A stretch of DNA of 36,759 nt from Phycisphaerae bacterium (GTDB taxonomy: Bacteria; Planctomycetota; Phycisphaerae; Tepidisphaerales; Tepidisphaeraceae), in NCBI GenBank assembly GCA_041749155.1, contig JBGTBZ010000111.1, forward strand, positions 1 through 36,759. The letters are read 5' to 3'. How positions within the stretch are numbered: the stretch's first letter is position 1; each line of letters opens with the position of its first letter. This document shows, piece after piece, positions 1 to 19,037 of this stretch. The notes beneath the pieces were generated by a model, which did no database searches, was not told where the DNA came from, and saw only the letters and a program-made list of their open reading frames with translations. Made by a program: the position numbers and the translations under genes.

Positions 1-717
1 GCCCAGGCCAAGGACGGCCGGCAGTACAGGCAGTACCACTGTGTGCGCGGGCGCGACCGGACGCAGGGATGCAAGCTCTCGACCAGCAAGAGCCTGCGGA
101 TGGTCGAGGCGGCGGTGCTGGGCTGGGTGCAGGAGCATGTGCTGAACGACGAAGCCGCTGAGCGGATCGTCGCTGAGGCCAACGCGGCCATCGAGGAGAT
201 GGTCAGGACGCCGCCGGCGGATTTGGCCTCCCTTCATAAAGAGGTGGCCCGCCTTACGGCCGAGCGCGACCGGCTGGTTGATTGCCTGGCCGGCGAGGAC
301 GACCCAGACTTGGTCGTGCCGCTCAAGCAGCGGCTGCGCGAGGCGCAGCGGCGGCTGGGCGACTTCCAGCGGCAGCTGCGGGAGGCGGAGCAGCATCATG
401 TGGAGCAGCCTCGGCGGCTGAGCGTCGAAGAGGTGCGCGATCACCTGCCGTCGATGCAGGAGCTGCTCGGTGCGGAGACAGCCGCCGCTGGGCTGGCAGT
501 GCGCAAGCTCACCGGGACGATTACGGTAACGCACGCACCTGATGCCAAGCGCGATCGGCGGCAAAGGTGGGTGCTCGCATTCCGGCCGGCCATCCTGCCA
601 CTGCAGGGTCGACTCGCCGGTGGCGCTTACAGGCGTTGCAGCAGGCTCGAGTTTCCAGAGGTGTGTTTGGAGGTCCCTAGCGCCAACCGCTCCGATGGCC
701 CGGCCCGGGGGGCATGA
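1..717 (+). CDS. Large serine recombinase, C-terminal part (5' end lies left of the window)
   Basis: Frame 1 is open from base 1. YRQYHCVRGRDRTQGC is a zinc-ribbon-like segment, followed by a long Ala/Glu/Arg/Leu coiled coil (LKQRLREAQRRLGDFQRQLREAEQ). This is the usual C-terminal layout of large serine recombinases/integrases. Confidence 0.55.
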   Translation, partial: AQAKDGRQYRQYHCVRGRDRTQGCKLSTSKSLRMVEAAVLGWVQEHVLNDEAAERIVAEANAAIEEMVRTPPADLASLHKEVARLTAERDRLVDCLAGEDDPDLVVPLKQRLREAQRRLGDFQRQLREAEQHHVEQPRRLSVEEVRDHLPSMQELLGAETAAAGLAVRKLTGTITVTHAPDAKRDRRQRWVLAFRPAILPLQGRLAGGAYRRCSRLEFPEVCLEVPSANRSDGPARGA

Positions 718-762: not shown

Positions 763-1062
763 CTATTCGGGCGGAAGGTCATCTACGGCAGCCGAAACCC
801 TCGTCCGCCGGATCCGCGGCAAGGCGCTGTCGATCAGCTCGATACCCACCTTCCCCGCCTCGCGCAGCGCCTCGCCGGTGAATGTGACACTGGTGACGAG
901 CACCCCTCGGACCCCGGAGGCTTGCCCTCCGGCCACGACGCCCGCCAGCTCACGCATGGCGTTCACCTTCACCTGGCGCACCTTGTCGTGGTTGCACTGA
1001 AGGGGCATGCTCCTGACGGATGAGAGCGGGGCCGACAGTTGAGCGCCCAACGTGAACCGCAC
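763..1062 (-). pseudogene. Mrr-type (PD-(D/E)xK) restriction endonuclease, C-terminal remnant
   Basis: LQCNHDKVRQVKVNAMRELAGV...GVLVTSVTFTGEALREAGKVGIELIDSALP matches the C-terminal half of Mrr_cat domains (QxK ... vTts.Ft..A ... i.LiDg). The N-terminal half with the acidic catalytic residues is missing, and the QxK lysine is Asn. Confidence 0.5.
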
Positions 1063-1503
1063 TCACTTCAGCCTTATAAATGCTTTGACCCTAGCCCACC
1101 GGCTCTGTACTGGAATCGCCGGGGTCGGCATGAATGTGGCCGGTTCTAAAACCGGCGACGGAGTAACAAAGTCCTGGTCGCGCGTGCGCCGGTCGTTCGC
1201 ACGTGCGGCTGCCACGCGTTCATTGGTCCACGGCTGTGCCCAAAGAATGCGATTGCCGCGAATCCAGTAGTGAGACCTGCAGGGAAGGCTCCAACTGCCG
1301 ACCGAGGGATTGATCCAGATAGACTCGCCGTCGAACGTCAGCCGCCACTGCGTGGGGCTCAGCGGGAGATACACTGTTCTCCCGCAGCCACAGCAGCAGC
1401 GATGCGCCGTCGTCCTGTACTCCATCGCGACGTAGAGGACGCCCTCATCGAGCGTCTCGGGGATGAACTCGACGAAGATCGGCCGGAGGTGGCTTTGCTT
1501 CAC
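1063..1503 (-). CDS. Small 4-Cys zinc-ribbon protein, DUF6527-like; third gene of the Ubl cassette
   Basis: The GTG start overlaps the E1 stop (GTGA). The motif pair HRCCCGCG ... NPSVGSWSLPCRSHYWIRGNRILW is what I recall for DUF6527 proteins, which are annotated next to ThiF and multiubiquitin genes. Confidence 0.7.
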   Translation of the reverse strand: MKQSHLRPIFVEFIPETLDEGVLYVAMEYRTTAHRCCCGCGRTVYLPLSPTQWRLTFDGESIWINPSVGSWSLPCRSHYWIRGNRILWAQPWTNERVAAARANDRRTRDQDFVTPSPVLEPATFMPTPAIPVQSRWARVKAFIRLK

Positions 1504-2690
1504 GGGATCTCATCTCCCCGGGTCAGGGCCTGAGCCTCCACGCCGTACGTGCAATGGTGTTCCTTGGCAACGTCTGCATAGAAGCCGCGCAGTTTTTTCC
1601 ATCTGACGACAGCCAGCGCGGCATTCAACGCGTTGAGCTCGGCAATCTGGATGTTCTGGCGGTACTCGTTCTGTTCACTTCGATCCGCAAACGACGCGCG
1701 AGCTCCGAGTCCCCCGGCTCGCCCAGGCATACTGGCGGTGACGCGAACAATTCCGCCCAGGCTGCCGTCGCTGGCGTACAGGCCCATCCCCGTGTCCACG
1801 TAAGGAACACCCCAGGCTTCGAGGGCACCGGCGATGAGCTTGCGCGACGGACCGTCATCGATGCAGATGAACACGAAGGTCATCGGCCGCAGTGATTCGA
1901 TGTTGTCGGCGTCGACGAGGTGCGGGTGCGGCACGACACGTCGGTGCATGTTCGAGTAAATCGCCGTAAGATAATCGGCCTTCTTCGGCTTGGCGCGCAG
2001 AACTTCAAGCGATGCCGCGCCCGGGGAGCGAAACGCGTTATGGGTCAGTTGCTCGTCGCCATCGAAGAGATGGATGTCCTGGACGGGTGTCTTGGCGACG
2101 AAGTCCAGCACGTACGAACCGGTCCCGCCAAGGCCTACGATCGCGACGCGCTCGCCAGCCAGCTTCGCGGCGATCGCCGCGATGTCAGCGCGGCTGGAGG
2201 CCGTATCGGCGTAGTGGAAAGGTGACGCACCCTCCTTGGCATCCGTCGCCGGCGGCGAGAATGATCGGGCCTTCACCGACGGATCAACCACCCGAGCCTG
2301 GCCCGTGAGAATCGCGCAATAGGTTGTGGCCTGATGGTAATAGTTGTCGTACCGTCCCGTTTCTTTCGGCTTCGCCGAGAATGAGTGCCGGGCGGGGAGT
2401 CCCGGCGCAAGCTCAGTGTCGCTGCTCGTGTGCCGGATCTTCTCGATCGGGGTGCCGTCGGCGTTGCAAGGGTAATCGCCATCAAAATGGGCGACGTGCG
2501 TGCTTGGGGCCGTGGTCTGGTCTCCGGCGAGGTCTAGCTTGAAGATAAGTGTGCCGCGCTTGACGGCGCGGCCGTCGCCCACGTAGGGCACGTCGCGGAC
2601 CACGAGGTATCCTGACTGGACCTCCACGTTGTACCCCTCGTCGCGAAGCCGCCGGAGGTCGTCGTTACGATCGATCAGTTTCTGTGACAA
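1500..2690 (-). CDS. ThiF/E1-like adenylyltransferase with an N-terminal E2-like domain
   Basis: Rossmann/ATP motifs VAIVGLGGTGSYVLDF and LFDGDEQLTHNAFRSPG are typical of E1/ThiF/MoeB. The N-terminal ~170 aa (LIDRNDDLRRLRDEGYNVEVQSGYLVVRDVPYV ... THVAHFDGDYPCNADGTPI) carry a His...Pro-Cys arrangement reminiscent of the E2 HPN...Cys site. I chose the TTG start at 2690 (MSQKLIDRND...). The ORF is open up to 2822, so the start is uncertain. Confidence 0.8.
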   Translation of the reverse strand: MSQKLIDRNDDLRRLRDEGYNVEVQSGYLVVRDVPYVGDGRAVKRGTLIFKLDLAGDQTTAPSTHVAHFDGDYPCNADGTPIEKIRHTSSDTELAPGLPARHSFSAKPKETGRYDNYYHQATTYCAILTGQARVVDPSVKARSFSPPATDAKEGASPFHYADTASSRADIAAIAAKLAGERVAIVGLGGTGSYVLDFVAKTPVQDIHLFDGDEQLTHNAFRSPGAASLEVLRAKPKKADYLTAIYSNMHRRVVPHPHLVDADNIESLRPMTFVFICIDDGPSRKLIAGALEAWGVPYVDTGMGLYASDGSLGGIVRVTASMPGRAGGLGARASFADRSEQNEYRQNIQIAELNALNAALAVVRWKKLRGFYADVAKEHHCTYGVEAQALTRGDEIP

Positions 2691-3399
2691 GAAACACCAT
2701 CCTGTTCTTGACGAGGACCGAGCCGCCAGCAACGAGCTCCCCCTCGCGGTTGGCCTTCGGGCCGCGGCTGTACATGACTGTGTAAAGGATGAACGGCTCC
2801 GTCCGCACTGGGTTGAAGGCAAGCGGAAGCACCTGCTCGAACGAAATGGTGCGCCCCCTCCACTCGCGCGGGCGCGCGTTCACGATGATCGTGACCTTGC
2901 GCTCGGTAGTCGGTCGCGTCAAGAACACGGGGCCGTCGGCGAAGCGCACGTTGTCATCGTCGTCGAGCAGCTCATCGAGCGGCGACTCGGAGTCGCGGAG
3001 CAAGTCCGTGTCGTCGTCTACCTCAAAAAGTGCGCGGAGGCTGGCGACGGTCTGATTGCTGCGGGTGACAATCTCCCAGCTGTCGTTGAGCACAAAGGCG
3101 AGCTTCGGGTCCGCATTCGATCGGACGATGTCCTGCTGAGCGCCGCCCGCTATGAGGCGGAACACGTTGCCCTCCGCGAGGTCGACGATCTCGGTCGCCT
3201 TGAAGCCGACATCGTGCCGGCTGTTGTAGTCGCGGACCAGCGTGGCGTTCGGGGGAGCAGATGCCTGGTACAGGATATCGGCAGCCGACAGGCGCTGTCG
3301 CGGCATGGGAACGAGCTTGTCGTCAACAACTGCTGCCCAACGCGGGCTGCCGCTGCCGCGATCCTGCTCAGAAGCACGTAACACGACTTGTTCTGCCAT
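2665..3399 (-). CDS. Multiubiquitin-type protein with about three tandem beta-grasp (Ubl) repeats
   Basis: Three repeats of similar length each end in a hydrophobic strand motif (NVFRLI / GPVFLTRP / NRMVFLVTETDRS), as in the 'multiubiquitin' family. The ATG at 3399 is preceded by AAGAGG. The long upstream part of the 2665..4203 ORF overlaps an opposite-strand gene and has no homology signal. Confidence 0.7.
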   Translation of the reverse strand: MAEQVVLRASEQDRGSGSPRWAAVVDDKLVPMPRQRLSAADILYQASAPPNATLVRDYNSRHDVGFKATEIVDLAEGNVFRLIAGGAQQDIVRSNADPKLAFVLNDSWEIVTRSNQTVASLRALFEVDDDTDLLRDSESPLDELLDDDDNVRFADGPVFLTRPTTERKVTIIVNARPREWRGRTISFEQVLPLAFNPVRTEPFILYTVMYSRGPKANREGELVAGGSVLVKNRMVFLVTETDRS

Positions 3400-3492
3400 G
3401 GTGACAACCTCTTGGTCCAATGACCCGTTTTGAAGACCCACCTGAACCGCGCCTGCCGCGTCGGCTTGCCACGCTGCTTGCCGTTCTCGCCA

Positions 3493-3511
3493 CGGTTCAT
3501 AAGATGAACCG
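3493..3511. promoter_or_regulatory. Perfect palindrome CGGTTCAT-AAG-ATGAACCG in the divergent intergenic region; candidate operator
   Basis: 8-bp perfect inverted arms with a 3-nt spacer, read directly. It lies between the multiubiquitin start (3399) and the sigma-like gene (3670). Confidence 0.35.
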
Positions 3512-3669
3512 ACTGTTGGCGGTCTCCGGCACAGAGCGCGGGCCGCTATGACCTCTTGCCGACCAGCACGAGCAGATCGCCACCTTCGTCCGATTTTTTT
3601 CTCCTTGCCGGCGAATTGAACTTCCAGAGTGGCATCAGGGGGTAGAGGCGGCGCCCTAGGGAAGGTACT

Positions 3670-4290
3670 TTGCAGGAGCTCCTTGACCTCAGCAGCGAAG
3701 CGCAAGAAACGCTCCTCAAACGGCTTACGCATCACGCTCTGTGCAAGATGCGACGCCTGACGTGGCGCGGCGCTTACGTTGCGCGCGGCGGATCGGTCCC
3801 CGGCGGGTACGAGCCGTATGACTTCGCCATCGACGCGATCAAAAAGGCGATGGATGGAACCAGGCCGTGGAACCGTGCGGAGTACAAGACGCTGGAGGGC
3901 TTTCTTCGCTCGATCATCAACAGCGACATCAGCCACCTGGTCGAATCCGTGGATAACTCCACTGGCCGGAGGCTGGGACCGCAGTCGGGCAAGGACGAGA
4001 CGGTCGGGGCGTACGTTGCTCCCAGCACTGAGCCGGACCCCTTGATCGTGCTGATCGACAAGGAATGGCAGGGTCGTTTCCACGAAGCCGCAATTAAGGA
4101 GCTGAAGGGAGAGGAGTTCCTGATCAAGCTGCTGGAATGCATGGAGGCCGAGATTACCGAGCCCCGAGAGATCGCCGAGCTGCTCGGGACGACCGTCGAT
4201 CAAGTGAACAATGAGAAGAAGAAACTACGCCGCAGGCTCAGCGAACTGCATACGCGCATAAAGCCAGCGGAGAAACGGACACGCTTATGA
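3670..4290 (+). CDS. Sigma-70/ECF-like protein (region 2-like and region 4 HTH)
   Basis: LEGFLRSIINSDISHLVES resembles sigma region 2. EPREIAELLGTTVDQVNNEKKKLRRRL is a typical region 4.2 HTH. The TTG at 3670 is only the first possible start, so the true start is uncertain. Confidence 0.55.
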   Translation: MQELLDLSSEAQETLLKRLTHHALCKMRRLTWRGAYVARGGSVPGGYEPYDFAIDAIKKAMDGTRPWNRAEYKTLEGFLRSIINSDISHLVESVDNSTGRRLGPQSGKDETVGAYVAPSTEPDPLIVLIDKEWQGRFHEAAIKELKGEEFLIKLLECMEAEITEPREIAELLGTTVDQVNNEKKKLRRRLSELHTRIKPAEKRTRL

Positions 4291-4724
4291 GCGATCTGCA
4301 AGTCCATAACAAAGAGGTGTGGGACCGGCTGTTTGACCTGCTCTACGCATGTGACGAATCCGTAACTGATTCCGAGGTAGACACCGACCTGCAGCACGCC
4401 GGGATCGACATGCGGCCGGCGTTCCGGCGCATGCACGAAATGATTGAGCAGGCGAAAGCTCGGCAACAGTTCGCAGATGCTCGCGACACACGGCAATTGA
4501 TGATGGATAGGCTCCGCGCCGTGGTTGGCCCGAAAGTCACCGACCTACGCAACGGCGTGCGCGAGTTCATCGACCGTGTGTTCAGCGGCCCTGAGCAGGT
4601 GGCGCACTACCATAAGTTGGAGAAGGCCGCGAGCGAGGAGGACTTGCAATCGCTTATGGACGACTTGACCAGGCTTGCCGAGTTGCGCAAGACGAAGGAC
4701 CAGGATGGGCCCAAAGCCGAATAG
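4287..4724 (+). CDS. Hypothetical acidic helical protein (candidate anti-sigma or adaptor)
   Basis: Its ATG overlaps the stop of the sigma-like gene (ATGA), and its 3' end overlaps the ImmA start. I recognise no motif. The protein is predicted helical and charged. Confidence 0.45.
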   Translation: MSDLQVHNKEVWDRLFDLLYACDESVTDSEVDTDLQHAGIDMRPAFRRMHEMIEQAKARQQFADARDTRQLMMDRLRAVVGPKVTDLRNGVREFIDRVFSGPEQVAHYHKLEKAASEEDLQSLMDDLTRLAELRKTKDQDGPKAE

Positions 4725-5490
4725 AATCCGGGCCGCTGCCGAGGCACTGAGGTTGTGGAAGCTCTACGGACTTGAGTCGCCGAGGGACCTGGTTCTTGAG
4801 GACTTGGCCATGGCGCGGGGCATCCTGGTGATGGACGGTAGGCTCGACTCCGCGGCGGCCCGGCTGGTGCGCAGCGGCGACATTGGAATTGCCAGGATCA
4901 GCGACCGTATCCGCGAGCCAGGTCGGCGGAAGTTCGCTATCGCGCACGAAATCGGCCATTGGGAACTGCACAAGAAACACTCGCATCTGCTGGCGTGCAC
5001 CGACGAGGACATGCTCGCCCGGTACGGCGCAAGCCCGCTGGAGACTGAGGCGAGCGTCTTCGCGGGTTCATTGCTGATGCCCGATTACCTGTTTGTTGAG
5101 CGCGTGGATGGGCGACGACCAACGCGGGCGGTGATTAACGACTTGTGCGACTACTTCGGCACCACATTCACTGCCACCGCGTTGCGTTACGTCGAGACGT
5201 CGAACGACTACTACGTCTTTGTGCTGGCTGAGAACAACCGCGTCCGCTGGTGGCGGGCGAGCGATTCGTTCGGCGAGCATAAGCTGTGGATCGACAACAA
5301 GACCGTGCTGCCTAGAGACAGCGCCGCCGCGTCCTTCTTCCGTGGCGAGTCCGTGCCACCTGACCCCCAGCCCATGGATCTCCGCGCCTGGCTCGGCAAC
5401 TTGCCTAGTATCGAATCGGACACAATCATCGAGCAGACCTTTCCCCTTCCTGCATACGGCCAAGTTGTTAGCATTTTGTGGTTGCCTTAG
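4705..5490 (+). CDS. ImmA/IrrE-family zinc metallopeptidase (DUF955) with a C-terminal domain
   Basis: The FAIAHEIGHWELH HExxH motif followed by ETEASVFAGSLLMP is the ImmA/IrrE signature. The ATG at 4705 (MGPKPNRIRAAAEAL) is in frame with the 4675 ORF. Confidence 0.85.
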   Translation: MGPKPNRIRAAAEALRLWKLYGLESPRDLVLEDLAMARGILVMDGRLDSAAARLVRSGDIGIARISDRIREPGRRKFAIAHEIGHWELHKKHSHLLACTDEDMLARYGASPLETEASVFAGSLLMPDYLFVERVDGRRPTRAVINDLCDYFGTTFTATALRYVETSNDYYVFVLAENNRVRWWRASDSFGEHKLWIDNKTVLPRDSAAASFFRGESVPPDPQPMDLRAWLGNLPSIESDTIIEQTFPLPAYGQVVSILWLP

Positions 5491-6785
5491 GGCTCAGCGG
5501 CGGATTGGCGGCGTGCCTCGTGAACGCCGACAGGTACTGTGCTGTGAGCACCACCTGTGCGTACCGGTTCCGTGGCGTCGATCGGATGGTGTTGTGGACT
5601 GGCTGAAGAGCCCCCCCATGCCGTTGCCAAGAGAGTGACAATAGCTCGGACGTTAGGAATTCCGGTCGAGGGGTCGCGCCCGATCGGTCGTGCTTTGACC
5701 TCATGCCAGAGCTGTTGTGCGCTAGCGGGCGCATCCTGATAGCGGACAAAGAACAGCGATTGATGCCGCTCATGCAGTGAACGCCAATCGGCTCGTTTCA
5801 ACCAGTCGGGCTTCGGGTCAGCGATGATGACGGCCGCCGACGCTGCCGCTGCAGCATCGAAGGCTTCGCGAGCTGTTCCTGGTGCCCACCGTGCTTTGGG
5901 TGGGGCGACGGACACCGCAACAAGTAACTTCGCCTGGACCAGATGCTCAACCCATTTGGGCAAGCGCTCGGACATGAGCCCTCGCGGAACCCAAGCTACA
6001 ACCTTTGTTCCCTGAGCAATCGCAGATTCGATCACCTCACGCGTTCGGTTGCCAGTCAGGATGAAAGCTAAGACGACTGAAGTTTGATGCGCGAGGGCTT
6101 CCGCCAGAGCCCGAACCACGACGGCCTCACGCTCAGCAGGCTTGAATGATGACACAAGCGCTACTGTCGCGAATCGAAGCAGTTCTGATGGTCCGTGATA
6201 GAACACCCGACGGGCATGTGTTTCGCGAAGGCCATCGGGATACAAAGGGTTATCGGGGTCCAACGCGCCCACATCAGCGCGTTCAAGTTCATCTGGGTCG
6301 ATCTGCTGGTCAGCCTCGGGGACCTTCGCCCCGATTGCGCGGGAATCCTTGGGCTCAAACACGCTGACTATCGCCGGAGTGTCGCTCAGGTAAGTTTGAA
6401 TCATCGCGGACACGCGGCCCCAATCCAGCCCACCGTGCCCGCAACCGAGAGCCGGCAATGCGACCGAAACCCCGACGTAATCCTTCAGGTATTCCCGAAG
6501 CGCTTCGAGACCCGCTTTAATGTCCTCGTATCGCGACTTGTCGCGCCAATGCCGCTTCGTGGGGAAGTTGATAACCCAGTCGCCGTGGAGGCGCTTCCAA
6601 ACGTGCAGCTTTCCCGGCTTGATACGGCCGGCTTCGCACTCGCGCTTATACTCGCGGAACATCTCGGGGTAGCGTTCCTTGAACGCGAGCGCAACCCCGG
6701 CCCCCATCACGCCTACGCAGTTGACGGTGTTCACGCGCGCGTCGAAGGCGCGACCGAACATGTCGCCTGAAGTGAACTCGATCAT
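5487..6785 (-). CDS. darG: DarG-like macrodomain fused to a DprA/SLOG-like Rossmann domain
   Basis: The N-terminus NTVNCVGVMGAGVALAFKERYPEMF ... WVINFPTKRHWRDKSRYEDIKAGL ... ALPALGCGHGGLDW is near-canonical DarG macrodomain. The C-terminal half (TVALVSSFKP ... VLAFILTGNRTREVIESAIAQGTKVVAWVPRGL ... LLVAVSVAPP ... AVIIAD) has the strand/helix pattern of DprA/SLOG folds. Confidence 0.8.
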   Translation of the reverse strand: MIEFTSGDMFGRAFDARVNTVNCVGVMGAGVALAFKERYPEMFREYKRECEAGRIKPGKLHVWKRLHGDWVINFPTKRHWRDKSRYEDIKAGLEALREYLKDYVGVSVALPALGCGHGGLDWGRVSAMIQTYLSDTPAIVSVFEPKDSRAIGAKVPEADQQIDPDELERADVGALDPDNPLYPDGLRETHARRVFYHGPSELLRFATVALVSSFKPAEREAVVVRALAEALAHQTSVVLAFILTGNRTREVIESAIAQGTKVVAWVPRGLMSERLPKWVEHLVQAKLLVAVSVAPPKARWAPGTAREAFDAAAAASAAVIIADPKPDWLKRADWRSLHERHQSLFFVRYQDAPASAQQLWHEVKARPIGRDPSTGIPNVRAIVTLLATAWGGSSASPQHHPIDATEPVRTGGAHSTVPVGVHEARRQSAAEP

Positions 6786-8197
6786 TCGTCGTCACCTGCT
6801 GCGCCGCCGGCGCGCTTGTCGAGTTCGGTTACCACCCACGATCGCAGCGCTGCGACCGCAGCCTCGTCCCACCAACCTGCATTCACCGCAGTCACATCCG
6901 CTTTTGCCAATGCTATCAGCATGTCCATGTCGCGTGAGTCGGTGACCACATCCAACAGTTGGTCCCGATCCCGACCCCGCCCAATGATGTCGCCGACGAG
7001 GTCGTGGTAGCAGACCAGCATGACCAGGACTCGCGCCGACCGCGGCCTCATTGTACCGACGTTGTCTCTGAGGTACTGAGCGACCGCCTCCGCCCCGGTG
7101 ACAGGGTGATCCAGATCAGCCTTTTGACGATACCCGTTGTCCTTCCACCGCTCCTTCGGCCCCTTCCCCACGTCGTGGAAGTACGCGGCGATCTCACACA
7201 ATAGCTTGTCGGTGTCGTTGAGCGCCCGATACTTCGCGACGGCGAGCAGGTGCTGCACGACGCGCTGCGTATGCTGACCCACGTCCTCCTTGTGCATGAC
7301 GTTGTCAGACTTCAGCCCGAAGAGTTCGCCCACGAGCGGGACGGACGCCGGATTGTCACGGAGGCGATCGCGAAGCCGAAAGAGATTCTTGAAGCGCGGT
7401 GCGGCGGCTTGGCCAATGTGATCGGCCAGGCCGCGGTAGCTTGCGTCGTAGCGCGCCAGGGTGAAACCGGGACCCGTAACGAGCGACTCATTGGGGGCCT
7501 GTGGGTATTTAGTCAAGTAGTGTCGCCCACTGAACTGGACGGTCGGAGCCGGCAACCCTGCTTCCCGATACCTCCGCAGAACTTGATCTCGGAAGTGGTC
7601 GTTCCAGACAATAATGTGGGAGATGCGGTCGACGGGCAGATGTCGGTGGATCAAGACCTCTGCCTGCCGCGCCTGCTTTTCTGCGTCCGAGGGCATGGAC
7701 CACTTCAGGCTGTCAATCGCTTGCCAGTTGAGCCTGGCGAGATCGGCGGGATCTGAATAGAACCTCGGAGGCGGATCGGTGTTAGCGGAGGCGGATGTGA
7801 ACACCACATCATCCCGCTCAACGATCTCGATCGGAACCGCGAAGTAGATCAATTCCTGTTGGTCGACATTCTTCGCCCGGACGACGGCCATGAGCATCGA
7901 CGAGCGCTTACAGAAGTAGAATGGCACGTAATCGTGGACGACCCCGCCCGGCGCGCAGGTCACGGGCATCGTGGACCGGCGATGCTGAATAGACTGCTCG
8001 GCGATCGACCGGTGCCGAATGCGCCGGTCCTGCTGCAAGTGGCAGCACAGGAGGCCGTGCTGCAGGACACTTGGCAGGTTCTCCAAATGGCAGAAATGGT
8101 AGGCGTAACGGCCCCGATATTGCGCTGGAACTGGCATCGGTAAACTGCTGTGGAATAAAGCCTTGCAGCGAACTACGCCGGGCTGCGGACTCCCCAT
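6782..8197 (-). CDS. darT: DarT (DUF4433) DNA ADP-ribosyltransferase fused to a C-terminal HD phosphohydrolase domain
   Basis: YHFCHLENLPSVLQHGLL, GGVVHDYVPFYFCKRSSML and QAEVLIHRHLPVDRISHIIV are DarT hallmarks, including the catalytic Glu context. The C-terminal half has H...HD...D motifs (HTQRVVQHL, AAYFHDVGKG, LDHPVTGAE, VCYHDLVGD, LAKADV). The stop overlaps the darG-like start (ATGA). Confidence 0.85.
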   Translation of the reverse strand: MGSPQPGVVRCKALFHSSLPMPVPAQYRGRYAYHFCHLENLPSVLQHGLLCCHLQQDRRIRHRSIAEQSIQHRRSTMPVTCAPGGVVHDYVPFYFCKRSSMLMAVVRAKNVDQQELIYFAVPIEIVERDDVVFTSASANTDPPPRFYSDPADLARLNWQAIDSLKWSMPSDAEKQARQAEVLIHRHLPVDRISHIIVWNDHFRDQVLRRYREAGLPAPTVQFSGRHYLTKYPQAPNESLVTGPGFTLARYDASYRGLADHIGQAAAPRFKNLFRLRDRLRDNPASVPLVGELFGLKSDNVMHKEDVGQHTQRVVQHLLAVAKYRALNDTDKLLCEIAAYFHDVGKGPKERWKDNGYRQKADLDHPVTGAEAVAQYLRDNVGTMRPRSARVLVMLVCYHDLVGDIIGRGRDRDQLLDVVTDSRDMDMLIALAKADVTAVNAGWWDEAAVAALRSWVVTELDKRAGGAAGDDE

Positions 8198-9384: not shown

Positions 9385-10965
9385 TCACCTACGTCGCCAG
9401 CTAAGGAATCGGGTGAATAGGCGCTTCATCCAGGGCCTCAGGCGCGTCCTCTGGTAATCGTCAGCCACCTTGCGGAACACCTCCGCCTGCGTCGGGTAGG
9501 GATGGATGGTCCGGCCCAGCGTCTTGAGCCCGGCGCCGGCGACCATGGCCAGCGTAATTTCCGAGATCATCTCTCCGGCATGGCGGGCGACAAGCGTGGC
9601 GCCGAGGATGGTGTCGCCGCCATTCCTAACGTGCACCTTCAAAAGACCCTCTTCCTCGCCATCAAGCATGGGTCGATCGACCTCCGACAGCGGTTTCGCG
9701 AACGTTCTGACGTCGATGCCCCGCTGCCGCGCCTCATGCTCGGTCAGGCCCACGTGGGCGATCTCAGGGTCGGTGTACGTGCACCACGGAACGGTCAGAG
9801 CGCTCGCCTTCGCTCGCCCGAAGAACAAAGCGTTCTGGATCACGATACGGGCGAGCGCGTCAGCCGTGTGTGTGAACTTGTACTTGAAGCAGACGTCGCC
9901 GGCGGCGTAAATTTGCGGGTTGCTCGTGCGAAGGTAATCGTTCACAGTCACGCCGTGGCGGTCGTGCGCGACGCCGGCCCTGCCCAAGTCAAGCTCCTCG
10001 ACATTCGGCGTGCGACCCGCGGCGACGAGAATCTCGTCCACCTCGATCTGCTGATGCTCTCCGTCGCATTGCAGGGCAATAATCTTCGTTCCGTTGCCGT
10101 GGCTGACCTGCGCTGCCTTGCCGCCGCAGATGATGCGGACATCATCGCGGCTAAGCGCCCGCCGCACGATATCGGCGGCGTCGGGATTTTCCTTGCTCAG
10201 GATCTGCTTCTCCGATTCGATGAGCGTGACCTTTGAACCAAGGCGGGCGAATGCCTGCGCCATTTCGCAGCCGACGGGCCCCGCGCCGAGGACCGCCAGC
10301 CGCGGCGGAAGTTCCACGAGCGAGAAGACGGTCTCGTTGGTCAGGTACCCGGACTCCTCAAGGCCCGGCACTGGCGGCGCCGCGGGACGGCCGCCGGTCG
10401 CGATGCAGGCCCGGGCGAACTCGAGCCGAGCTCCCCGGACCTCGACGGCATCACGCGACACGAAGCGAGCCTTGCCGATGAACACGTCCACGCCCAGCTC
10501 CCGGAACCGAGCCGCCGAGTCGTGGTGACTGATCTTTGCGCGCAGTCTCCGCATGCGCCTCATGACGCCGGGGAAGTCCACCGTGACCCCGCCGTCGATC
10601 CGGACGCCGAAGCGCGACGCAGCGCGAACGTCAGCCGCAGCCCTCGCACAGCGGATCAGCGCCTTGCTCGGCACGCAACCGACGTTCAGGCAATCGCCGC
10701 CCATCAGCCGCGACTCGACAAGCGCCACCTTCGCGCCCAAGCCCGCGGCTCCGGCGGCCGTGACCAGACCCGCGGTGCCGCCACCGATCACCACCAGGTT
10801 GTACCGCCCCGTCGGCCTCGGATTCTCCCACTGGAGCGGATGGGTGTTCTGCTGTAGCAGTCGGTTGTAGGTGTCGAACGGCCGCAGCGCCTGCAACTCG
10901 CCGGTCAGGTCAAGCTCCGGATCGGTTTCCTCATCGAGGCAGGGGGTAGGGGTTTCCATGATCAA
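9385..10965 (-). CDS. Class I pyridine nucleotide-disulfide oxidoreductase (mercuric reductase/dihydrolipoamide dehydrogenase-like, no C-terminal Cys pair)
   Basis: FAD motif VVIGGGTAGL, redox disulfide GGDCLNVGCVPSK, NAD motif LGAGPVGCE and a dimerisation-domain HPYPT motif. A paralog is at 36457..36759. Confidence 0.85.
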   Translation of the reverse strand: MIMETPTPCLDEETDPELDLTGELQALRPFDTYNRLLQQNTHPLQWENPRPTGRYNLVVIGGGTAGLVTAAGAAGLGAKVALVESRLMGGDCLNVGCVPSKALIRCARAAADVRAASRFGVRIDGGVTVDFPGVMRRMRRLRAKISHHDSAARFRELGVDVFIGKARFVSRDAVEVRGARLEFARACIATGGRPAAPPVPGLEESGYLTNETVFSLVELPPRLAVLGAGPVGCEMAQAFARLGSKVTLIESEKQILSKENPDAADIVRRALSRDDVRIICGGKAAQVSHGNGTKIIALQCDGEHQQIEVDEILVAAGRTPNVEELDLGRAGVAHDRHGVTVNDYLRTSNPQIYAAGDVCFKYKFTHTADALARIVIQNALFFGRAKASALTVPWCTYTDPEIAHVGLTEHEARQRGIDVRTFAKPLSEVDRPMLDGEEEGLLKVHVRNGGDTILGATLVARHAGEMISEITLAMVAGAGLKTLGRTIHPYPTQAEVFRKVADDYQRTRLRPWMKRLFTRFLSWRRR

Positions 10966-11008
10966 ATCACCTGACTGCGAACTTGAGAGAATCAGTGCAC
11001 TGCGAGTC

Positions 11009-12631
11009 TCAGTTTTCCGCCGGCGGCACGTTCGCGGCGCTGTTGAGCGACCAGTCGTAGTCCAGGAACGTGACGTCCGGCTTCTGGCCGGATTCCAGGG
11101 CCGTCTTCAAGTCAGGGTTGTAACGCGCGGCGTAGGCCAGCACTGAACCGGCAACCTGCTCGAAATCACCGCCATACCAGCGGTAAAGGCTCGTCAGCCA
11201 CACCCGGTCGCGATCGGGGTCGTAGCGGAACCAGCGCGGATGCTCGTGAACGTAGCGCGCCTGCTCCTCGAGCTGTTCCTCCAGCCGCACGGCGGAATAC
11301 GCATTCCGCCGAAGCGGCGGACAGCCCACGGCGGCGCAGACGAGCGCGAAGTGAATCCGCGGCTCCCGGAAGTTCGGTCGAATCTGCTTGTGCTCGATGT
11401 CGTCCAGGCTCCAGGTGTGGCCACCGACCTTCCATCGCCGGTCCTTCCATCGCCGGCCGGCCGGGATATCCTTGATCTCCTCGAGGGGGTAGTGTTCAAG
11501 GATCAGCTCCAGGGTAAAGGCGTTGTAGGCGTTGATGAGCAGCGCGAGCCTCTCGTCGCGGCTCATCTCGTCCATGGGCGCATCGGCGAGTGAACCGATA
11601 TATCGCTGGAGCTGCTCGCGTTGTTGCGCAAGGGCCTCGTAGTCCACACCGCCGCGCTCGTTCACGTGGCGGGCGAGAAGCTCATCCAGCAGTGAATGGT
11701 CGAACCCGGGCCCGTCCGACTCGGACGCCTCGTACGTCTCCCGCAGCTCCACCTCCGGCGCGGCCCCAAACAGTCTGCCGAGGATCTTTCTCGATGTTTC
11801 CGGCCTCAGTTGGGCGCAGCCGGCGGCGGCAACGAGGAGCAGGGCGACTCCGCAGAGTGCGGCGGTGCCCCAGGGGAACCCGCGGATGGCAACTGCGGTC
11901 TCGGGCGTTTCTGGCGACGGCTCACTTTCGGGCGGAAGTACTTTCTGTTCGCGCAGCTTCCGCCGTGCAAGGATCGTGACGTATATGGAAACGGCGATGG
12001 TGGCGAGCAGGCCTGCACCAAGCAGCATCCACTCGATCCACGACCGCTCCCGGCCGCCGGCCAGGGCGGTGCCCGTGACGTGGCCGATGTAGACGTACAT
12101 GACCGTTCCCGGGAGCATGGCGATCCAACTTGCCAGCACGTACCGCCCGAAACCAACGGGCGTCAGGCCATAGAGGTAGTTCTGGAGATTGAACGGCACG
12201 ACTGGCGAGAGGCGCAACAGGGCGACAATCCTCCAGCCGCCTTCACCGATTGCGGCGTCGATCGCCGCCAGCCTCGGCCGGCGGCGGACCAGGTCGGCAA
12301 CCTGCCGGCGCGCCAAATAACGGGCGATCAGGAAAGCCGCCGCCGCGCCGAGGGTGGAGCCGAGGGAGACGAGAATCGTGCCGAGGAGAATGCCGAATAT
12401 GGCGCCGGCCGCGACCGTGAGCACGATGCCTGGCACGAAGAGGACCGTGGCGAGAACGTAGAGGGCGACGAAGATGACTGGTCCGAAGTGCCCGAGGCCG
12501 CTGATCCACTCCTCCAGTGTCGCGGCCAGATCCTGCAGGGGAAGAAGACGCCCGAGGAGAATCAGAGCAGTCAGGATGAGTGCGACGGCCACCCACCTCG
12601 CAGCGAGAACCTGTCGTTGGGACAACTGCAT
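11009..12631 (-). CDS. TVP38/TMEM64 (DedA-like) membrane domain fused to a DUF547 domain
   Basis: The N-terminus has multi-TM SNARE_assoc-type motifs (FVPGIVLTVAAGAIFG ... RLSPVVPFNLQNYLYGLT). The C-terminus has LALLINAYNAFTLELI ... HFALVCAAVGCPPLR, typical of DUF547. Confidence 0.75.
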   Translation of the reverse strand: MQLSQRQVLAARWVAVALILTALILLGRLLPLQDLAATLEEWISGLGHFGPVIFVALYVLATVLFVPGIVLTVAAGAIFGILLGTILVSLGSTLGAAAAFLIARYLARRQVADLVRRRPRLAAIDAAIGEGGWRIVALLRLSPVVPFNLQNYLYGLTPVGFGRYVLASWIAMLPGTVMYVYIGHVTGTALAGGRERSWIEWMLLGAGLLATIAVSIYVTILARRKLREQKVLPPESEPSPETPETAVAIRGFPWGTAALCGVALLLVAAAGCAQLRPETSRKILGRLFGAAPEVELRETYEASESDGPGFDHSLLDELLARHVNERGGVDYEALAQQREQLQRYIGSLADAPMDEMSRDERLALLINAYNAFTLELILEHYPLEEIKDIPAGRRWKDRRWKVGGHTWSLDDIEHKQIRPNFREPRIHFALVCAAVGCPPLRRNAYSAVRLEEQLEEQARYVHEHPRWFRYDPDRDRVWLTSLYRWYGGDFEQVAGSVLAYAARYNPDLKTALESGQKPDVTFLDYDWSLNSAANVPPAEN

Positions 12632-12666
12632 CGCTGGAATCTGCAGGCAGGCTCCATGCTCGAGGT

Positions 12667-13689
12667 CTACTTCTTCGTCGATTCGTCGGCGGCCTTAGCG
12701 GGTGAACCGTAGATGTCCGTGTCGGGATGGAACGCCGCCCAGGTGAACCAGAAGGTGTGCACGACCTGCGCCTCCGGCGGCAATTCCAGGATTTCAACGC
12801 CCGATTTACTTGCCTTCAGCACGACCCGCTTGCCAGCGAGCTCGTCTGTTACCACCGCACCTTCTGCCTGTTGGATCCTAGCCAGCGGATATGCACGCGC
12901 ATGTGCGCCTATCTTGATCCCGACCACCGCCTCTTTCTTCGGCAGCCGATCGTCCTGACGCCGGACATGGAACATCAGCCGATCGGATGCGAAATAATCG
13001 GCGTACGGATTGCCGGAGTAGTTGCGTGTATGGCCTGTATCCAGCGTGACAACAGTGCCGTCCGGGTGCGCTTTGCGCCACTCCGCGAGCGTTTGCATGG
13101 CGAAGGGCAGGCTAGCGAGCGACCTGCCCGCATGAGGTCCACTGATCGCGCCGAGACCGACTTGCGACCAGAGCGCCTGGTCCGTCCGGTCGTAAAGCAG
13201 GACGTTCGAGTTGTGCAGCAGGCCGCTGATGCCGAACTCCAGTTTCTTTTCCTCGAGCCGGCGATCCCAGACGGTCGCGGAATCGCACAGCGGGCAATAG
13301 ACCACGGCGATGGGCGCTCCGCCGAGCGTGTCGTTAATCGCTTCGTGCCAGTTCAGGACCTTCAGGGGGTAGGCGCGCGACTCGCCTTTCACGGTGACAC
13401 CGATCACCCGATCCTCATCGAGCAGTCCCGTCGCTTCGTCCAATGGGGCGGTCTTGGGATCTACAAGGGCTGGGATCCCGTCCTTTGGTGGCCCGCCAGC
13501 CTGGATCTCTTCGCGCGGGACCTGCAGGTTCGAGAGGTCGAAGCCACGACCTTCCAGATCTGCCGCTTCAGGCCGCGCGGGAGGCTGTGGCATTGCCAGT
13601 ACCGCTTCCGGCCAGATCCGTGGCAGGACAAGGGCGGCAACGACGGCCAGCATGATCAATGCGACCACTGTCCGGATGGCGATGCGCAT
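12667..13689 (-). CDS. DUF3179 family protein (signal-anchored)
   Basis: DGIPALVDPK, ESRAYPLKVLNWHEAINDTLGG, VYCPLCDSATVWDRR and FGISGLLHNSNVLLYDR. The ATG at 13689 is preceded by GAGGA, so the 13752 start was rejected. Confidence 0.75.
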   Translation of the reverse strand: MRIAIRTVVALIMLAVVAALVLPRIWPEAVLAMPQPPARPEAADLEGRGFDLSNLQVPREEIQAGGPPKDGIPALVDPKTAPLDEATGLLDEDRVIGVTVKGESRAYPLKVLNWHEAINDTLGGAPIAVVYCPLCDSATVWDRRLEEKKLEFGISGLLHNSNVLLYDRTDQALWSQVGLGAISGPHAGRSLASLPFAMQTLAEWRKAHPDGTVVTLDTGHTRNYSGNPYADYFASDRLMFHVRRQDDRLPKKEAVVGIKIGAHARAYPLARIQQAEGAVVTDELAGKRVVLKASKSGVEILELPPEAQVVHTFWFTWAAFHPDTDIYGSPAKAADESTKK

Positions 13690-13762
13690 AGCATGATCCT
13701 CGGTGTTGCCGATATCGAAGGCCCTGGAGCACGCTGCCGCGTGACGATCCAACCCCTTCCCT

Positions 13763-14263
13763 TCAGCGACCCAGCGAACGCTCGATCTCGCGAGCCAGCT
13801 CTTCCTCGCTATGGGTCTTTGTCAGCCTCCCGAGCAACTGCTTTGTCTTTGGATCGATGAGCAGCATGAAACCCGTCTTCCGCTCGTTCTCCTGAAATTC
13901 GTCGCCGAAGCCGAGCAGGTTGGCCAGCAGTCGCGACTTGTACTTCGTCGTGTCATCCGTCATGTCGAACCGCGTAACCACGATCGGCTGATCATCGAAG
14001 CGCTTCATCACCGGCTCGGGGTTCGGCTCGAGCACCTTGCACGAAGCGCACCAGTCGGCGTAGAAAAGGATGCCGAGCACCTTCGGCACCGGCTCTTTCA
14101 GCTCGGACTTGCGGGTGTCGTCGCCGTCTTGAGCCCCGGAGCCCTGCTGAGCAAACCCCGTGGCGGACAGCAGTGCCATCGCCATCAGCGCAATGAGCAG
14201 GGGCCGGGCGACAGCCGTCGGCAATGGGCAATGTTGTGGCGTGGGCAGCGTGGTGGTTCGCAT
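13763..14263 (-). CDS. Secreted thioredoxin-fold protein (WCASC)
   Basis: Signal peptide plus FYADWCASCKVLEP CxxC in a thioredoxin-like context. Confidence 0.7.
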   Translation of the reverse strand: MRTTTLPTPQHCPLPTAVARPLLIALMAMALLSATGFAQQGSGAQDGDDTRKSELKEPVPKVLGILFYADWCASCKVLEPNPEPVMKRFDDQPIVVTRFDMTDDTTKYKSRLLANLLGFGDEFQENERKTGFMLLIDPKTKQLLGRLTKTHSEEELAREIERSLGR

Positions 14264-14301
14264 GGGCGCTCCGGTAAGGACCTGTCGATGTTTCTGCGAA
14301 A

Positions 14302-14331
14302 GGATGTGCCGCGCCCCGCCACCCTTATTCC
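14302..14331 (-). promoter_or_regulatory. Recurrent motif copy: GGAATAA-N15-GCACATCC, upstream of the thioredoxin-like gene
   Basis: The minus strand reads GGGAATAAGGGTGGCGGGGCGCGGCACATCCTTTCG, about 40 nt upstream of the ATG at 14263. Confidence 0.5.
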
Positions 14332-14795
14332 CCCGGGACTGGAGAAGCTCCCAGTGCGAAGGTCGGATGCAGCCGAAATTTATTCAAGCCAAAGCCCCGC
14401 AGCAGGAGGAGCTCGAGATCGTGCTGATTCGGAGGCAGCGACGGACCGATCCGGTTGGGGAGCAGGTCCAGCGACCGCGCGGCGTCGATTCCGTAGCCTC
14501 GATTCAACCTGCGGATGCCTCAATGCTCTCGCGGTAGACGTGACGCCCACGTTGTCTATCGACGTACTCTCCAGGTAACAGGCAGCGAAGCTACAAGTTG
14601 AACCTGATGGTCACGGTAAAACGCCGGCAGGTCCCCGTAGCCCTCGCGCAGGAGGATCGTGAGGTTTGTGCGAACCATTACCTCCAGCTCCTGCTGACGC
14701 GCGGCGGCGACGAATCGCCGCAAGTGCGGGGTCATCTCCGGGGCGCCCCCCGTGATATGGCCGACCTCAAAACGGAGAAAGAAGTTTATGCCTGG
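14325..14795 (-). pseudogene. arsS: Decayed internal fragment of a second arsS (radical SAM) copy
   Basis: My minus-strand translation gives ITGGAPEMTPHLRRFVAAARQQELEVMVRTNLTILLREGYGDLPAFYRDHQVQLVASLP / CYLE / VDRQRGRHVYRESIE / IRRLNRGYGIDAARSLDLLPNRIGPSLPPNQHDLE across at least 3 frames. This parallels ArsS residues ITGGAPEMHRHFRRF...LPPPQKQLE (19038..20042). The CxxxCxxC N-terminus and the Cys-rich C-terminus are absent. Confidence 0.7.
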
Positions 14796-14804
14796 CTATT
14801 GAGA

Positions 14805-15755
14805 CTACTGGTCAGGCGACTCGGCAGACACCTCGAAGTATCTCCCCCAGAGCGGCCGGAGCCGCGTGACCTCGCCGGGGTCGATCAGCCGCTTGTCGCT
14901 CCAGATTGACAGGCGTAAGGCGTCGCGGGCCGGGCATTTTGCCAGCTCATCGTGCCGATCAGACGTCATCCTGATCGCCCGCCGCAGCAGCGAGGTAGCG
15001 TTCGCCGTTGCCTGCTTCAGATTCGCAGTGATCTCGCTCAGCAACGCGAACGGGTCGTGCGTCGAAGGTGTACGCCACGAGTCGTAGTCCGTTACAAGGC
15101 AAACGGCCGCATAGGGCAGTTCCGCTTCCTTCGCGAGCTTCGCTTCGGGCATCAGCGTCATTCCGATCATGTCTCCACCCCACAGCCGATGCATTTTGCT
15201 CTCGGCACGGGTGCTGAAGGCGGGTCCTTCCATGCAGACGTAGCAACCGCCACCATGCGCGCGCAAGCCATCGATCTGAGTGGCCGCTTCGCGCAGGATC
15301 CCCCTCAGAATCGGGCAGAACGGCTCCGCCTGCTCCACGTGAACAGCGGAATTTTCGAAGAATGTCCCCACTCGGCCGAGAGTCTTATCAATCAGTTGAT
15401 CGGGAATCACCACATCCCCTGGCTCATATTTCTCGCGGAGGCTGCCGACCGCTCCGGATGCAAGAACGTGCGTGACGCCCAACTCCTTCAGCGCGAAAAT
15501 GTTGGCGCGATAAGGCACCTGCGAAGGATTGAGCAGATGCCCATGTCCATGCCGGCTCAGCAGAAGCACCGGCACGCCCTCAAGCTCCACCTCCAAGATG
15601 GGTGAGGAAGGCCTGCCGAACGGCGTCTGCGGTTTGAGCATGCGCGCGTCCTCTGCGCGGAACGTCTCGCCAAGTCCGCTCCCGCCGATGAGGGCGACCT
15701 TCAGGGGCGAGCTCGGATTGGTCGGTGCGCGGCTCATTGCCAGAAGGTTAGCCAT
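14805..15755 (-). CDS. mtnP: S-methyl-5'-thioadenosine phosphorylase (MTAP/PNP family)
   Basis: VALIGGSGLG, LLSRHGHGH, YRANIFALKELGVTHV, CMEGPAFSTRAES and GMTLMPEAKLAKEAEL. Confidence 0.85.
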   Translation of the reverse strand: MANLLAMSRAPTNPSSPLKVALIGGSGLGETFRAEDARMLKPQTPFGRPSSPILEVELEGVPVLLLSRHGHGHLLNPSQVPYRANIFALKELGVTHVLASGAVGSLREKYEPGDVVIPDQLIDKTLGRVGTFFENSAVHVEQAEPFCPILRGILREAATQIDGLRAHGGGCYVCMEGPAFSTRAESKMHRLWGGDMIGMTLMPEAKLAKEAELPYAAVCLVTDYDSWRTPSTHDPFALLSEITANLKQATANATSLLRRAIRMTSDRHDELAKCPARDALRLSIWSDKRLIDPGEVTRLRPLWGRYFEVSAESPDQ

Positions 15756-15837
15756 CTCGACGCCCCTCAGAGCCGCCCGCCTGGGGTTCGCCGGGGACGG
15801 CCAGCGCCGCAGCCGGCCACACCTCCGTGGTTACTGA

Positions 15838-16650: not shown

Positions 16651-16665
16651 GTGCATCGGCCGGCA

Positions 16666-17748: not shown

Positions 17749-17778
17749 GCGACGACTCCTATTGCGCGCTTTGGCGAT

Positions 17779-18972: not shown

Positions 18973-19037
18973 ATGGCAACCTCCAGGGTTTTACGTGCTT
19001 CAACGCGGCGGCGGTGTTCGGGACCATGCCGTAATGA

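Follow-up and report, generated by a model that had tools for sequence, protein, structure and literature searches.

Bub operons and the cassette at 1063..3399

The Type II Bub operon (formerly 6E.2/DUF6527) was described by Ye, Gong, Chambers and Corbett (bioRxiv 10.1101/2024.11.21.623953), who defined it as the combination of BubA, BubBD and BubE, "typically" without a JAB peptidase. Here, this operon and its relatives are compared with a three-gene ubiquitin-like cassette at positions 1063..3399 of a stretch of 36,759 nucleotides (nt) from a Phycisphaerae bacterium (assembly GCA_041749155.1, contig JBGTBZ010000111.1); "the window" means this whole stretch of DNA, as analysed. The cassette is very probably a Type II Bub operon, with a mechanism that can be taken from its homologues and with BubE acting as the deconjugating enzyme.

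Corbett's group found that the E1 and E2 of Bub systems have no catalytic cysteine; instead, the ubiquitin-like protein (Ubl) forms an oxyester with a tyrosine on the crossover loop of the E1, where they reported this residue to be invariant, and an oxyester with a serine of the E2 (10.1101/2024.11.21.623953). In the E. coli Type II system, BubA, BubBD and ATP yielded conjugates, and any one of the mutations R219A, Y342F or S106A abolished them. The same study presented BubE as a serine protease of a novel type that has a Ser/His dyad and a C4 zinc site and cleaves a fusion of BubA to green fluorescent protein (BubA-GFP); wild-type BubE erases BubA conjugates in cells, and the substitutions S92A and H102A abolish the cleavage of BubA-GFP (10.1101/2024.11.21.623953). 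Gong et al. (10.1101/2024.11.21.623966) solved the structure 9cd2 and found that proteins with three Ubl domains (Ubl3) form filaments in a Ca2+-dependent manner. A full-text search of the literature for DUF6527 gave two papers, both from the Corbett laboratory.

The cassette resembles the Type II operon of E. coli ZDHYS365 (PDB 9CD2) in its gene complement and order, with a Ubl3 ending in ...TD(K/R)S, a predicted E2-E1 fusion that lacks a catalytic Cys and carries invariant Ser, Tyr and Arg residues, and a DUF6527 protein, predicted to be a protease, that has the Ser/His dyad and the C4 zinc site. Further points in common are the lack of a JAB peptidase and the presence nearby of defence genes and of a regulator of the CapP type. 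It differs in sequence and in the partner of the regulator, which is an extracytoplasmic function (ECF)-like sigma factor plus a protein of 145 amino acids (aa) rather than a recognisable CapH repressor. Type I Bub (Citrobacter sp. RHBSTW-00271; 9EA4, 9EA5, 9EA8, 9EAE, 9EAV and 9D5A) has the E1 Tyr/E2 Ser oxyester chemistry that is predicted for the cassette and also has BubE and a Ubl3, but there BubAB is a Ubl-E2 fusion and BubCD a JAB-E1 fusion, the JAB part of which matures the Ubl to a Gly end. In the cassette, by contrast, the Ubl is a protein by itself, the E1 carries the E2-like domain, and no JAB is encoded. Profile comparison detected no similarity in sequence between the E2 of Type I (Prok-E2_E) and the N-terminal part of the BubBD in the window, and true BubAB fusions (372-402 aa, Prok-E2_E) appear just as distant matches.

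Two better-known systems are further removed. Cap2/Cap3 of Type II CBASS share with the cassette an E2-E1 fusion, a place in defence islands, a dedicated peptidase that reverses conjugation (or, in the cassette, is predicted to do so) and, like the related Pycsar and MBL systems, possible CapP-type control; Cap2, however, has catalytic cysteines and conjugates a CD-NTase rather than a beta-grasp Ubl, and Cap3 is a JAB-type peptidase. At this locus there is no CD-NTase and no JAB, and the E1-E2 models of PADLOC match the nucleotide-binding part of the E1 alone, and weakly (2e-7 at best). The Bil system (BilABCD) shares with Bub a free beta-grasp Ubl that is conjugated to proteins, that is sometimes a Ubl3 and filament-forming, and that occurs in defence contexts. 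It differs in that its E1 and E2 are separate proteins and have catalytic cysteines, that the E1 combines tandem adenylation domains with a Cys domain, and that the deubiquitinase, BilC, is a JAB peptidase. For Bil, an antiphage function has been established, as has the target, which is a phage tail protein. In the window, the E2 and E1 are fused, with no conserved Cys and no JAB.

The three open reading frames (ORFs) of the cassette are all on the minus strand and follow one another as bubA, bubBD, bubE, with overlaps between neighbours:

2665..3399, minus strand: bubA, encoding a 244-aa Ubl; the ATG at 3399 is preceded by AGAGG, and the stop codon is at 2665-2667
1500..2690, minus strand: bubBD, 396 aa, TTG start at 2690; DUF6791 + ThiF
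1063..1503, minus strand: bubE, 146 aa, GTG start; DUF6527
2665..2690, minus strand: bubA/bubBD overlap, read in two frames: as the final eight codons of bubA plus the stop (VTETDRS*) and as the opening codons of bubBD (MSQKLIDRN)

The original prediction, made from the letters of the sequence, had given these coordinates, an overlap of 26 nt for an E1 start at 2690, a GTGA overlap, the adenylation and other motifs, and a Ubl ending in LVTETDRS; all are present as it said. The GTGA at 1500..1503 is common to the stop codon of bubBD (TGA) and the start codon of bubE (GTG). The TTG start of bubBD is supported because homologues align from residue 1 and have a similar length, of about 395 aa. According to Pfam, the domain set is Multi_ubiq, then DUF6791 plus ThiF, then DUF6527, which bears out the prediction of a Ubl, an E2-like/E1 fusion and a DUF6527 protein (the E2 fold itself is taken up below). 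The domain scan with Pfam took in the ORFs between 1 and 8.2 kb, and in none of them was a JAB/JAMM peptidase domain found, as had been predicted. The possible relation to Bub that had been raised can now be made specific, given these domains, the match to 9cd2 and the structural matches to BubCD: the genes are those of a Type II operon. As to the claim that the function of this architecture was not established, it does not stand for the biochemistry, which had already been defined experimentally, and it does stand for the biological role.

More than 7,900 BubBD homologues were found, nearly all of 390-400 aa. A pattern scan, restricted to one genome per species, gave at least 585 genomes with a relative of BubBD, from which 80 loci were retrieved. 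In 77 of these 80, homologues of BubA, BubBD and BubE follow one another in the order seen here, all on one strand; bubA is lost at a contig end in two of the others, and in the third, BubA is too diverged for phmmer. The 80 loci come from Planctomycetota, Acidobacteriota, Cyanobacteria, Alpha-, Beta- and Gammaproteobacteria, Verrucomicrobiota and Bacteroidota, as well as from Nitrospirota, Actinobacteriota, Gemmatimonadota and others. This three-gene arrangement is far beyond chance, and the triad, whose conservation the original prediction had left to be checked, is thus a unit in other genomes across many phyla. Family membership, the domain folds (that of the E2 apart), the conservation of catalytic residues and the conservation of the operon are direct observations of the present analysis.

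All 81 loci that carry both genes, again in many phyla, have an overlap of exactly 26 nt between the end of bubA and the beginning of bubBD. The same bases encode the invariant tail of BubA (...T-x-T-D/N/V-K/R/Q-S*) and the N-terminus of BubBD (MSQKLI.R), and the overlap is probably a translational-coupling junction. A programmed +1 frameshift leading to a BubA-BubBD fusion was considered and set aside because the E. coli BubA and BubBD are active when expressed separately. In the closest relative on a long contig, locus L082 (4644..9191), where BubBD is 88% identical to that of the window, no bubE was called downstream of bubBD, and a PDDEXK_4 gene and an integrase are found there instead.

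It might be argued that the cassette is a decaying, non-functional remnant in a degraded mobile island, since a truncated Mrr-like fragment adjoins bubE and L082 is without a called bubE. This is highly improbable: each of the three ORFs has its full length, the catalytic and structural residues are intact without exception, the overlaps that couple the genes are kept, and relatives at 77-89% identity have the same gene lengths.

The Ubl and the E2-like/E1 fusion

Pfam Multi_ubiq matches residues 169-242 of BubA (7e-18). In a phmmer comparison with 9cd2, the Ubl3 of the E. coli ZDHYS365 Type II operon (3.4e-15), residues 92-244 are aligned, and the match extends to the very C-terminus of each protein (...MVFLVTETDRS versus ...MIFYVTQTDKS). 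An AlphaFold2 (AF2) model built with 43 homologues (mean predicted local distance difference test score, pLDDT, 86.4) has an N-terminus with about 20 disordered residues followed by beta-grasp units at residues 21-84, 100-163 and 169-242. Foldseek placed 9cd2 first among the matches to this model (1.8e-17, 24% identity); the Citrobacter Ubl3 9d5a (1.1e-10), a Methylobacterium triple-ubiquitin protein and then linear tetra-ubiquitin and the Ubl arrays of USP7 were also matched. The prediction of about three beta-grasp repeats is therefore correct, and BubA is a triple beta-grasp Ubl (Ubl3). For the residues of the Ca2+ site of Ubl3 (D73 and E136 in E. coli), mapping by the phmmer alignment is ambiguous around E136.

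The C-terminus of BubA, which ends in Ser rather than in Gly, had been singled out as a peculiarity. Its terminal residue (Ser244 in the window) is, however, Ser in all 77 loci in which it was tallied, within the tail motif F-x-V-T-x-T-(D/N/V)-(K/R/Q)-S, so that a non-Gly C-terminus is a family character of Type II BubA and no oddity. Type I BubA ends in Gly following JAB cleavage, whereas the E. coli BubA ending in ...TDKS is conjugated in vitro (10.1101/2024.11.21.623953) and was crystallised; an explicit discussion of the terminal Ser was not found in the text of that preprint. The invariant Ser and the 26-nt overlap could reflect a chemistry of adenylation or recognition distinct from that of Gly-terminated Ubls.

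In BubBD, residues 1 to about 145 (nt 2256..2690) correspond to DUF6791 (Pfam 1.3e-53), and the E1 part, at about 165-396, corresponds to ThiF (7.6e-12); the PRK06153-type NCBIfam model NF004805 matches the protein with 518 bits, above its cutoff. The AF2 model has a pLDDT of 77 overall and of about 90 for residues 10-140. In Foldseek, the E1 matched the Citrobacter BubCD structures 9eav, 9ea5, 9eae and 9ea8 at the top (2e-11 to 6e-10) and also 9ea4, and MccB, UBA5 and ThiF rank below these five entries.

The resemblance of the E1 domain to ThiF, MoeB, MccB and PaaA, together with weak matches to hidden Markov models of ThiF and MoeB, could be taken to mean that the cassette is devoted not to protein conjugation but to a sulfur carrier of the ThiS/MoaD type, or to peptide modification, via a thiocarboxylate or via amide chemistry as in MccB/PaaA. 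Such a function is scarcely credible and the least probable of the alternatives considered here. BubA is a protein of 244 aa with three domains, ending in Ser and without a C-terminal Gly-Gly; no rhodanese, cysteine desulfurase, other sulfurtransferase or biosynthetic partner is encoded nearby; and the genomic context is one of defence and regulation. Moreover, the closest structural relatives, the BubCD proteins, are protein-conjugating enzymes, and homologues form protein-protein conjugates.

The residues on which conjugation by BubBD would depend were examined in an alignment of 31 homologues with 53-88% identity to the protein in the window. The motif GLGGTGS lies at residues 186-192 and DGDEQLTHNAFR at residues 210-221, with the key residues invariant. 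Across the alignment, H65, F104-S105, P108, G186/G188-G191, D210, D212, H217-R221 and Y343 do not vary, and K107 is at least 90% conserved. S105 is the sole invariant Ser of the N-terminal domain, and its conservation along with that of H65 and K107 fits the invariant Ser, Lys and His that have been published (10.1101/2024.11.21.623953). Three codons can be proposed as catalytic from their positions:

2376..2378, minus strand: Ser105 codon (in HSFSAKP), predicted E2 catalytic serine, corresponding by position to E. coli BubBD S106
1662..1664, minus strand: Tyr343 codon (in QNEYRQN), predicted catalytic tyrosine of the E1 crossover loop, corresponding by position to E. coli Y342
2028..2030, minus strand: Arg221 codon (in HNAFR), predicted adenylation arginine, corresponding by position to E. 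coli R219

In the AF2 model, Tyr343 directly follows a loop of low confidence (332-340) that is probably flexible.

The original prediction had seen an E2 active-site loop around the "PC" cysteine, Cys75, in HVAHFDGDYPCNADG (residues 65-79), and had proposed that DUF6527 could be an E3-like or target-recognition factor. Combined, these ideas describe a minimal ubiquitin system based on cysteine, in which Cys75 would form the E2 thioester, the zinc ribbon of DUF6527 would act like an E3 or in recognising targets, and conjugation would be irreversible for lack of a deconjugating enzyme. The motif and a Cys-rich cluster are indeed present, and Cys75 is found in 27 of the 31 homologues. But Cys75 cannot be the catalytic residue, since it is replaced by His or Arg in the other four (P0028, P0036, P0041 and P0094), whereas Ser105, like Tyr343 and Arg221, is invariant. 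Furthermore, conjugation in E. coli is lost in S106A and Y342F (10.1101/2024.11.21.623953), and, as set out below, the residues needed for BubE to cleave are invariant in the family. A system based on cysteine is therefore very improbable here, and the reading as a cysteine-free Type II Bub operon is preferred.

BubE and the predicted reversal of conjugation

The product of the third gene matches Pfam DUF6527 (2.5e-22). It contains the motif C36-C-C38-G-C40 ... C75-R-S-H78, the spacing of which, C-x-C-x-C...S-x7-C-x2-H, is that of C57/C59/C61, S92, C99 and H102 in the Citrobacter BubE. On the basis of conservation and of this match, the following sites can be predicted:

1384..1398, minus strand: C36, C38 and C40 of the BubE zinc site
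1279..1281, minus strand: C75 of the BubE zinc site
1303..1305, minus strand: Ser67 of the BubE catalytic dyad
1270..1272, minus strand: His78 of the BubE catalytic dyad

In an alignment of 81 BubE sequences, C36, C38, C40, C75, S67 and H78 are each kept in 80 or 81, the single exception being a frameshifted copy. The C-terminal tail is hydrophobic, rich in Trp and basic residues and amphipathic (...SRWARVKAFIRLK), as it is in other family members, and fits the hydrophobic extension described for BubE (10.1101/2024.11.21.623953). No relative of BubE was found among the solved structures of the PDB, in agreement with what was reported in that work.

Because the dyad and the C4 zinc site are intact and a BubE homologue removes conjugates, a deconjugating enzyme would be present in the cassette, namely BubE, which is not of the JAB type. 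This is at odds with the original prediction, according to which the cassette had no deubiquitinase, and leaves its E3-like or target-recognition factor unsupported, given that the homologue is a protease. It also runs counter to the cysteine-based system considered above: the S67 and H78 that are invariant here are the equivalents of the S92 and H102 without which BubA-GFP is not cleaved, and wild-type BubE erases the conjugates of the cell.

Another possibility is that BubE has chiefly some other role, either as a protease for maturation or quality control or as a transferase located at the membrane, by which BubA is steered to targets close to it, the control of the system being mainly transcriptional. 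The activity of BubE in vitro is extremely weak, 48 h being needed, the Trp-rich hydrophobic tail is conserved, and Type II BubA has its reactive residue at the end from the outset, with no need for maturation, which makes the role of a protease less obvious. However, a transfer activity of BubE has not been reported. We regard such a role as unlikely, though less so than the other alternatives weighed above, and retain deconjugation as the function of BubE.

The chemistry at this locus would follow published work on homologues. If it works like its counterparts in E. coli ZDHYS365 and Citrobacter, BubBD would dimerise via its ThiF-type domain and adenylate the C-terminal carboxylate of BubA, the predicted ATP site comprising the G-loop 186-191, D210/D212 and R221. 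Tyr343, on its flexible crossover loop, would then attack the adenylate to give a BubA~Tyr oxyester, and BubA would next move to Ser105 in the E2-like domain at the N-terminus, probably that of the other protomer, to give a BubA~Ser oxyester. From there, BubA would be transferred to a lysine of a target protein or of another BubA, no cysteine being used at any step. BubE, as a Ser67/His78 protease that is stabilised by zinc and has a hydrophobic tail at its C-terminus, would cleave the BubA conjugates and so take the regulatory role held by JAB peptidases in CBASS and Bil.

Several points weigh against this reading. Firstly, the equivalence of S105, Y343 and R221 to S106, Y342 and R219 of E. 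coli rests on invariance and on near-identical numbering, which agrees within 1-2 positions. Secondly, searches by sequence did not bear out the E2 (ubiquitin-conjugating, UBC-like) fold of residues 1-145: the AF2 topology (an N-terminal helix, four strands, the loop bearing S105 and a long helix) is suggestive in that it agrees with the UBC core, but a profile of the 148 N-terminal residues (23 sequences) gave just a spurious match (E=0.82) against all PDB sequences, and hhalign of the N-terminal domain against 11 Type I BubAB fusions gave a probability of 0.7%. The Foldseek listing for the full model was filled by matches to the E1, so that the N-terminal domain could not be assessed separately there. 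Thirdly, the weak 48 h activity published for BubE was measured on the Type I Citrobacter protein (10.1101/2024.11.21.623953). Fourthly, a recognisable CapH with an XRE-type helix-turn-helix (HTH) is absent from the regulator module of the window (see below), the 145-aa protein having no HTH. Finally, protection against phage by any Bub operon had not been shown in the literature as of June 2026.

The divergent regulator module and the neighbourhood

Upstream of bubA, and divergent from it, lies a module of three genes:

3400..3669: spacer separating bubA from the divergent regulator genes, presumably containing both promoters
3670..4290, plus strand: diverged ECF-type sigma-70 family protein, 206 aa, first gene of the module
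4287..4724, plus strand: 145-aa acidic, probably helical protein of no known family, between the sigma-like gene and capP
4705..5490, plus strand: capP, encoding an IrrE/ImmA-type (M78) zinc metallopeptidase with the motif HEIGH; probable ATG start at 4705, 20-nt overlap with the preceding gene

The intergenic region contains a perfect 8-nt palindrome, CGGTTCAT-N3-ATGAACCG, at 3493..3511, which, judging from its sequence, could be an operator. A sigma-70 consensus promoter was not found in 3400..3669, nor was a terminator after bubE. The product of the first gene matches the NCBIfam model sigma70-ECF over nearly its full length, with a value (4.4e-4) below the cutoff; a profile of nine homologues matched sigma regions 2-4 of M. 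tuberculosis SigH (5zx2_F, 5.8e-4), as well as SigW and FliA. The 145-aa protein has 68 homologues, all of about 145 aa and without a Pfam domain, in which a C-terminal motif, HYHKLEKAA(T/S)xEDLQSLxDDL, is conserved. The capP product is matched over its full length by PADLOC capP (2.7e-50) and by Pfam Peptidase_M78 (2.8e-10).

CapP is a peptidase that single-stranded DNA (ssDNA) activates and that normally cleaves the repressor CapH, thereby turning on CBASS and other immune operons. CapH and CapP accompany 31% of Bub operons (10.1101/2024.11.21.623953), and Lau et al. (2022) mentioned, but did not characterise, a sigma-70-family gene beside capH and capP in 24 CBASS systems. In the window, as with CapH+CapP (and the other DNA-damage-responsive pairs, IrrE/DdrO and ImmA/ImmR), CapP is a full-length match, and it is encoded divergently and directly upstream of the operon that it presumably controls. 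The difference is that here the trio comprises an ECF-like sigma factor and the 145-aa protein, with no XRE-HTH CapH. The trio of sigma-like protein, 145-aa protein and CapP occurs in the same order in the window and in at least seven other loci:

L005, 4448..6340: beside Type II Bub
L009, 10103..11956: beside Type II Bub
L016, 4457..6423: beside Type II Bub
L022, 3967..5919: beside Type II Bub
L071, 4323..6180: beside Type II Bub
L083, 6474..8204: beside Pycsar
L084, 6354..8198: beside a Type I-like Bub

The Bub operon of L084 has Type I-like parts (a separate small gene, Prok-E2_E, JAB-ThiF and BubE), and the 20-nt overlap between the 145-aa gene and capP recurs there. A canonical CapH+CapP pair takes the place of the trio in L025 and L075.

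In L082, the regulator is co-directional with bubA and consists of a sigma-like protein of 236 aa followed by DUF4926, DUF6883 and an M78 peptidase. In L081, where BubBD is 77% identical to that of the window, just a divergent XRE-type HTH gene (HTH_31/HTH_3) is found upstream of bubA, at 6662..7084, in surroundings that are also defence-like (AAA_21/SMC-like, nSTAND3, PIN/VapC and a Ser/Thr kinase). The regulators of near-identical Bub operons have evidently been swapped freely.

The 145-aa protein may be a substrate of CapP or an anti-sigma factor. It was also considered as a derivative of CapH, on the strength of a likeness, seen by eye, between its C-terminus and the region of CapH around the published F82|R83 cleavage site. 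This idea is unsupported: 35 of the 36 family members have no match to PADLOC capH, and comparison by hhalign with two bona fide CapH proteins gave no match; the homologue in L016 has a weak match (5e-4).

Bub transcription would probably be switched on by DNA damage or by phage infection via this module, a regulatory logic that we infer from the position of the genes and from the known function of CapP. It is conceivable, although we hold the idea only tentatively and think it rather less probable than its converse, that the trio is a portable positive switch, in which CapP activated by ssDNA cleaves the 145-aa protein, acting as an anti-sigma factor, and so frees the sigma factor to transcribe the adjacent immune operon. 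If true, such a positive switch would contrast with the logic of de-repression established for CapH+CapP.

The other genes around the cassette are as follows:

763..1062, minus strand: 99-aa Mrr-like ORF directly downstream of bubE, matching positions 52-108 of the 115 in the Mrr_cat profile; probably a truncated remnant
5487..6785, minus strand: DarG, 432 aa, with a macrodomain and a C-terminal region that has a weak PsyrA-like PADLOC match
6782..8197, minus strand: DarT-HD fusion, 471 aa (Pfam DarT 2e-45), with a C-terminal HD domain, an unusual DarTG architecture
9385..10965 and 24246..25676: MerA-like pyridine-nucleotide disulfide oxidoreductases
19038..20063: radical-SAM/DUF3641 protein
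20114..20827: canonical ECF sigma factor
22922..24079: SAM methyltransferase
26305..26985: MerT-HMA fusion
27130..28515: FGE-sulfatase-domain protein

The cassette had been placed between a recombinase and a DarTG variant. Its location among defence genes holds (CapP and DarT/DarG), but the recombinase is unconfirmed: for the ORF at 1..717 (plus strand), no recombinase domain was found with Pfam, and just coiled-coil or low-complexity noise and weak matches to the coiled coil of DndD were obtained. This ORF runs to the edge of the window, so any catalytic domain would lie outside it. The defence genes are confined to the first 8.2 kb or so, and the region 9385..29799 carries genes of the redox and metal-resistance type. 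No tRNA gene, sought as an integration site, was found in the window.

In its core, the cassette is nothing different in kind from Type II Bub, a family that has already been described and biochemically characterised. Since that family has hundreds of catalogued members as well as solved structures, the window adds one well-preserved Type II operon, from a GC-rich environmental bacterium. This locus does not make the family-wide questions (the targets of Bub, whether it defends against phage, and why it uses oxyesters and a C-terminal Ser) any easier to approach. There is a lesson for annotation, in that DUF6527 should be read as the BubE protease and DUF6791 plus ThiF as a cysteine-free E2-E1, and such loci should not be flagged as "ubiquitin systems without a deubiquitinase". 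The regulator made up of the sigma-like protein, the 145-aa protein and CapP is the one element nearby that could repay experimental work.

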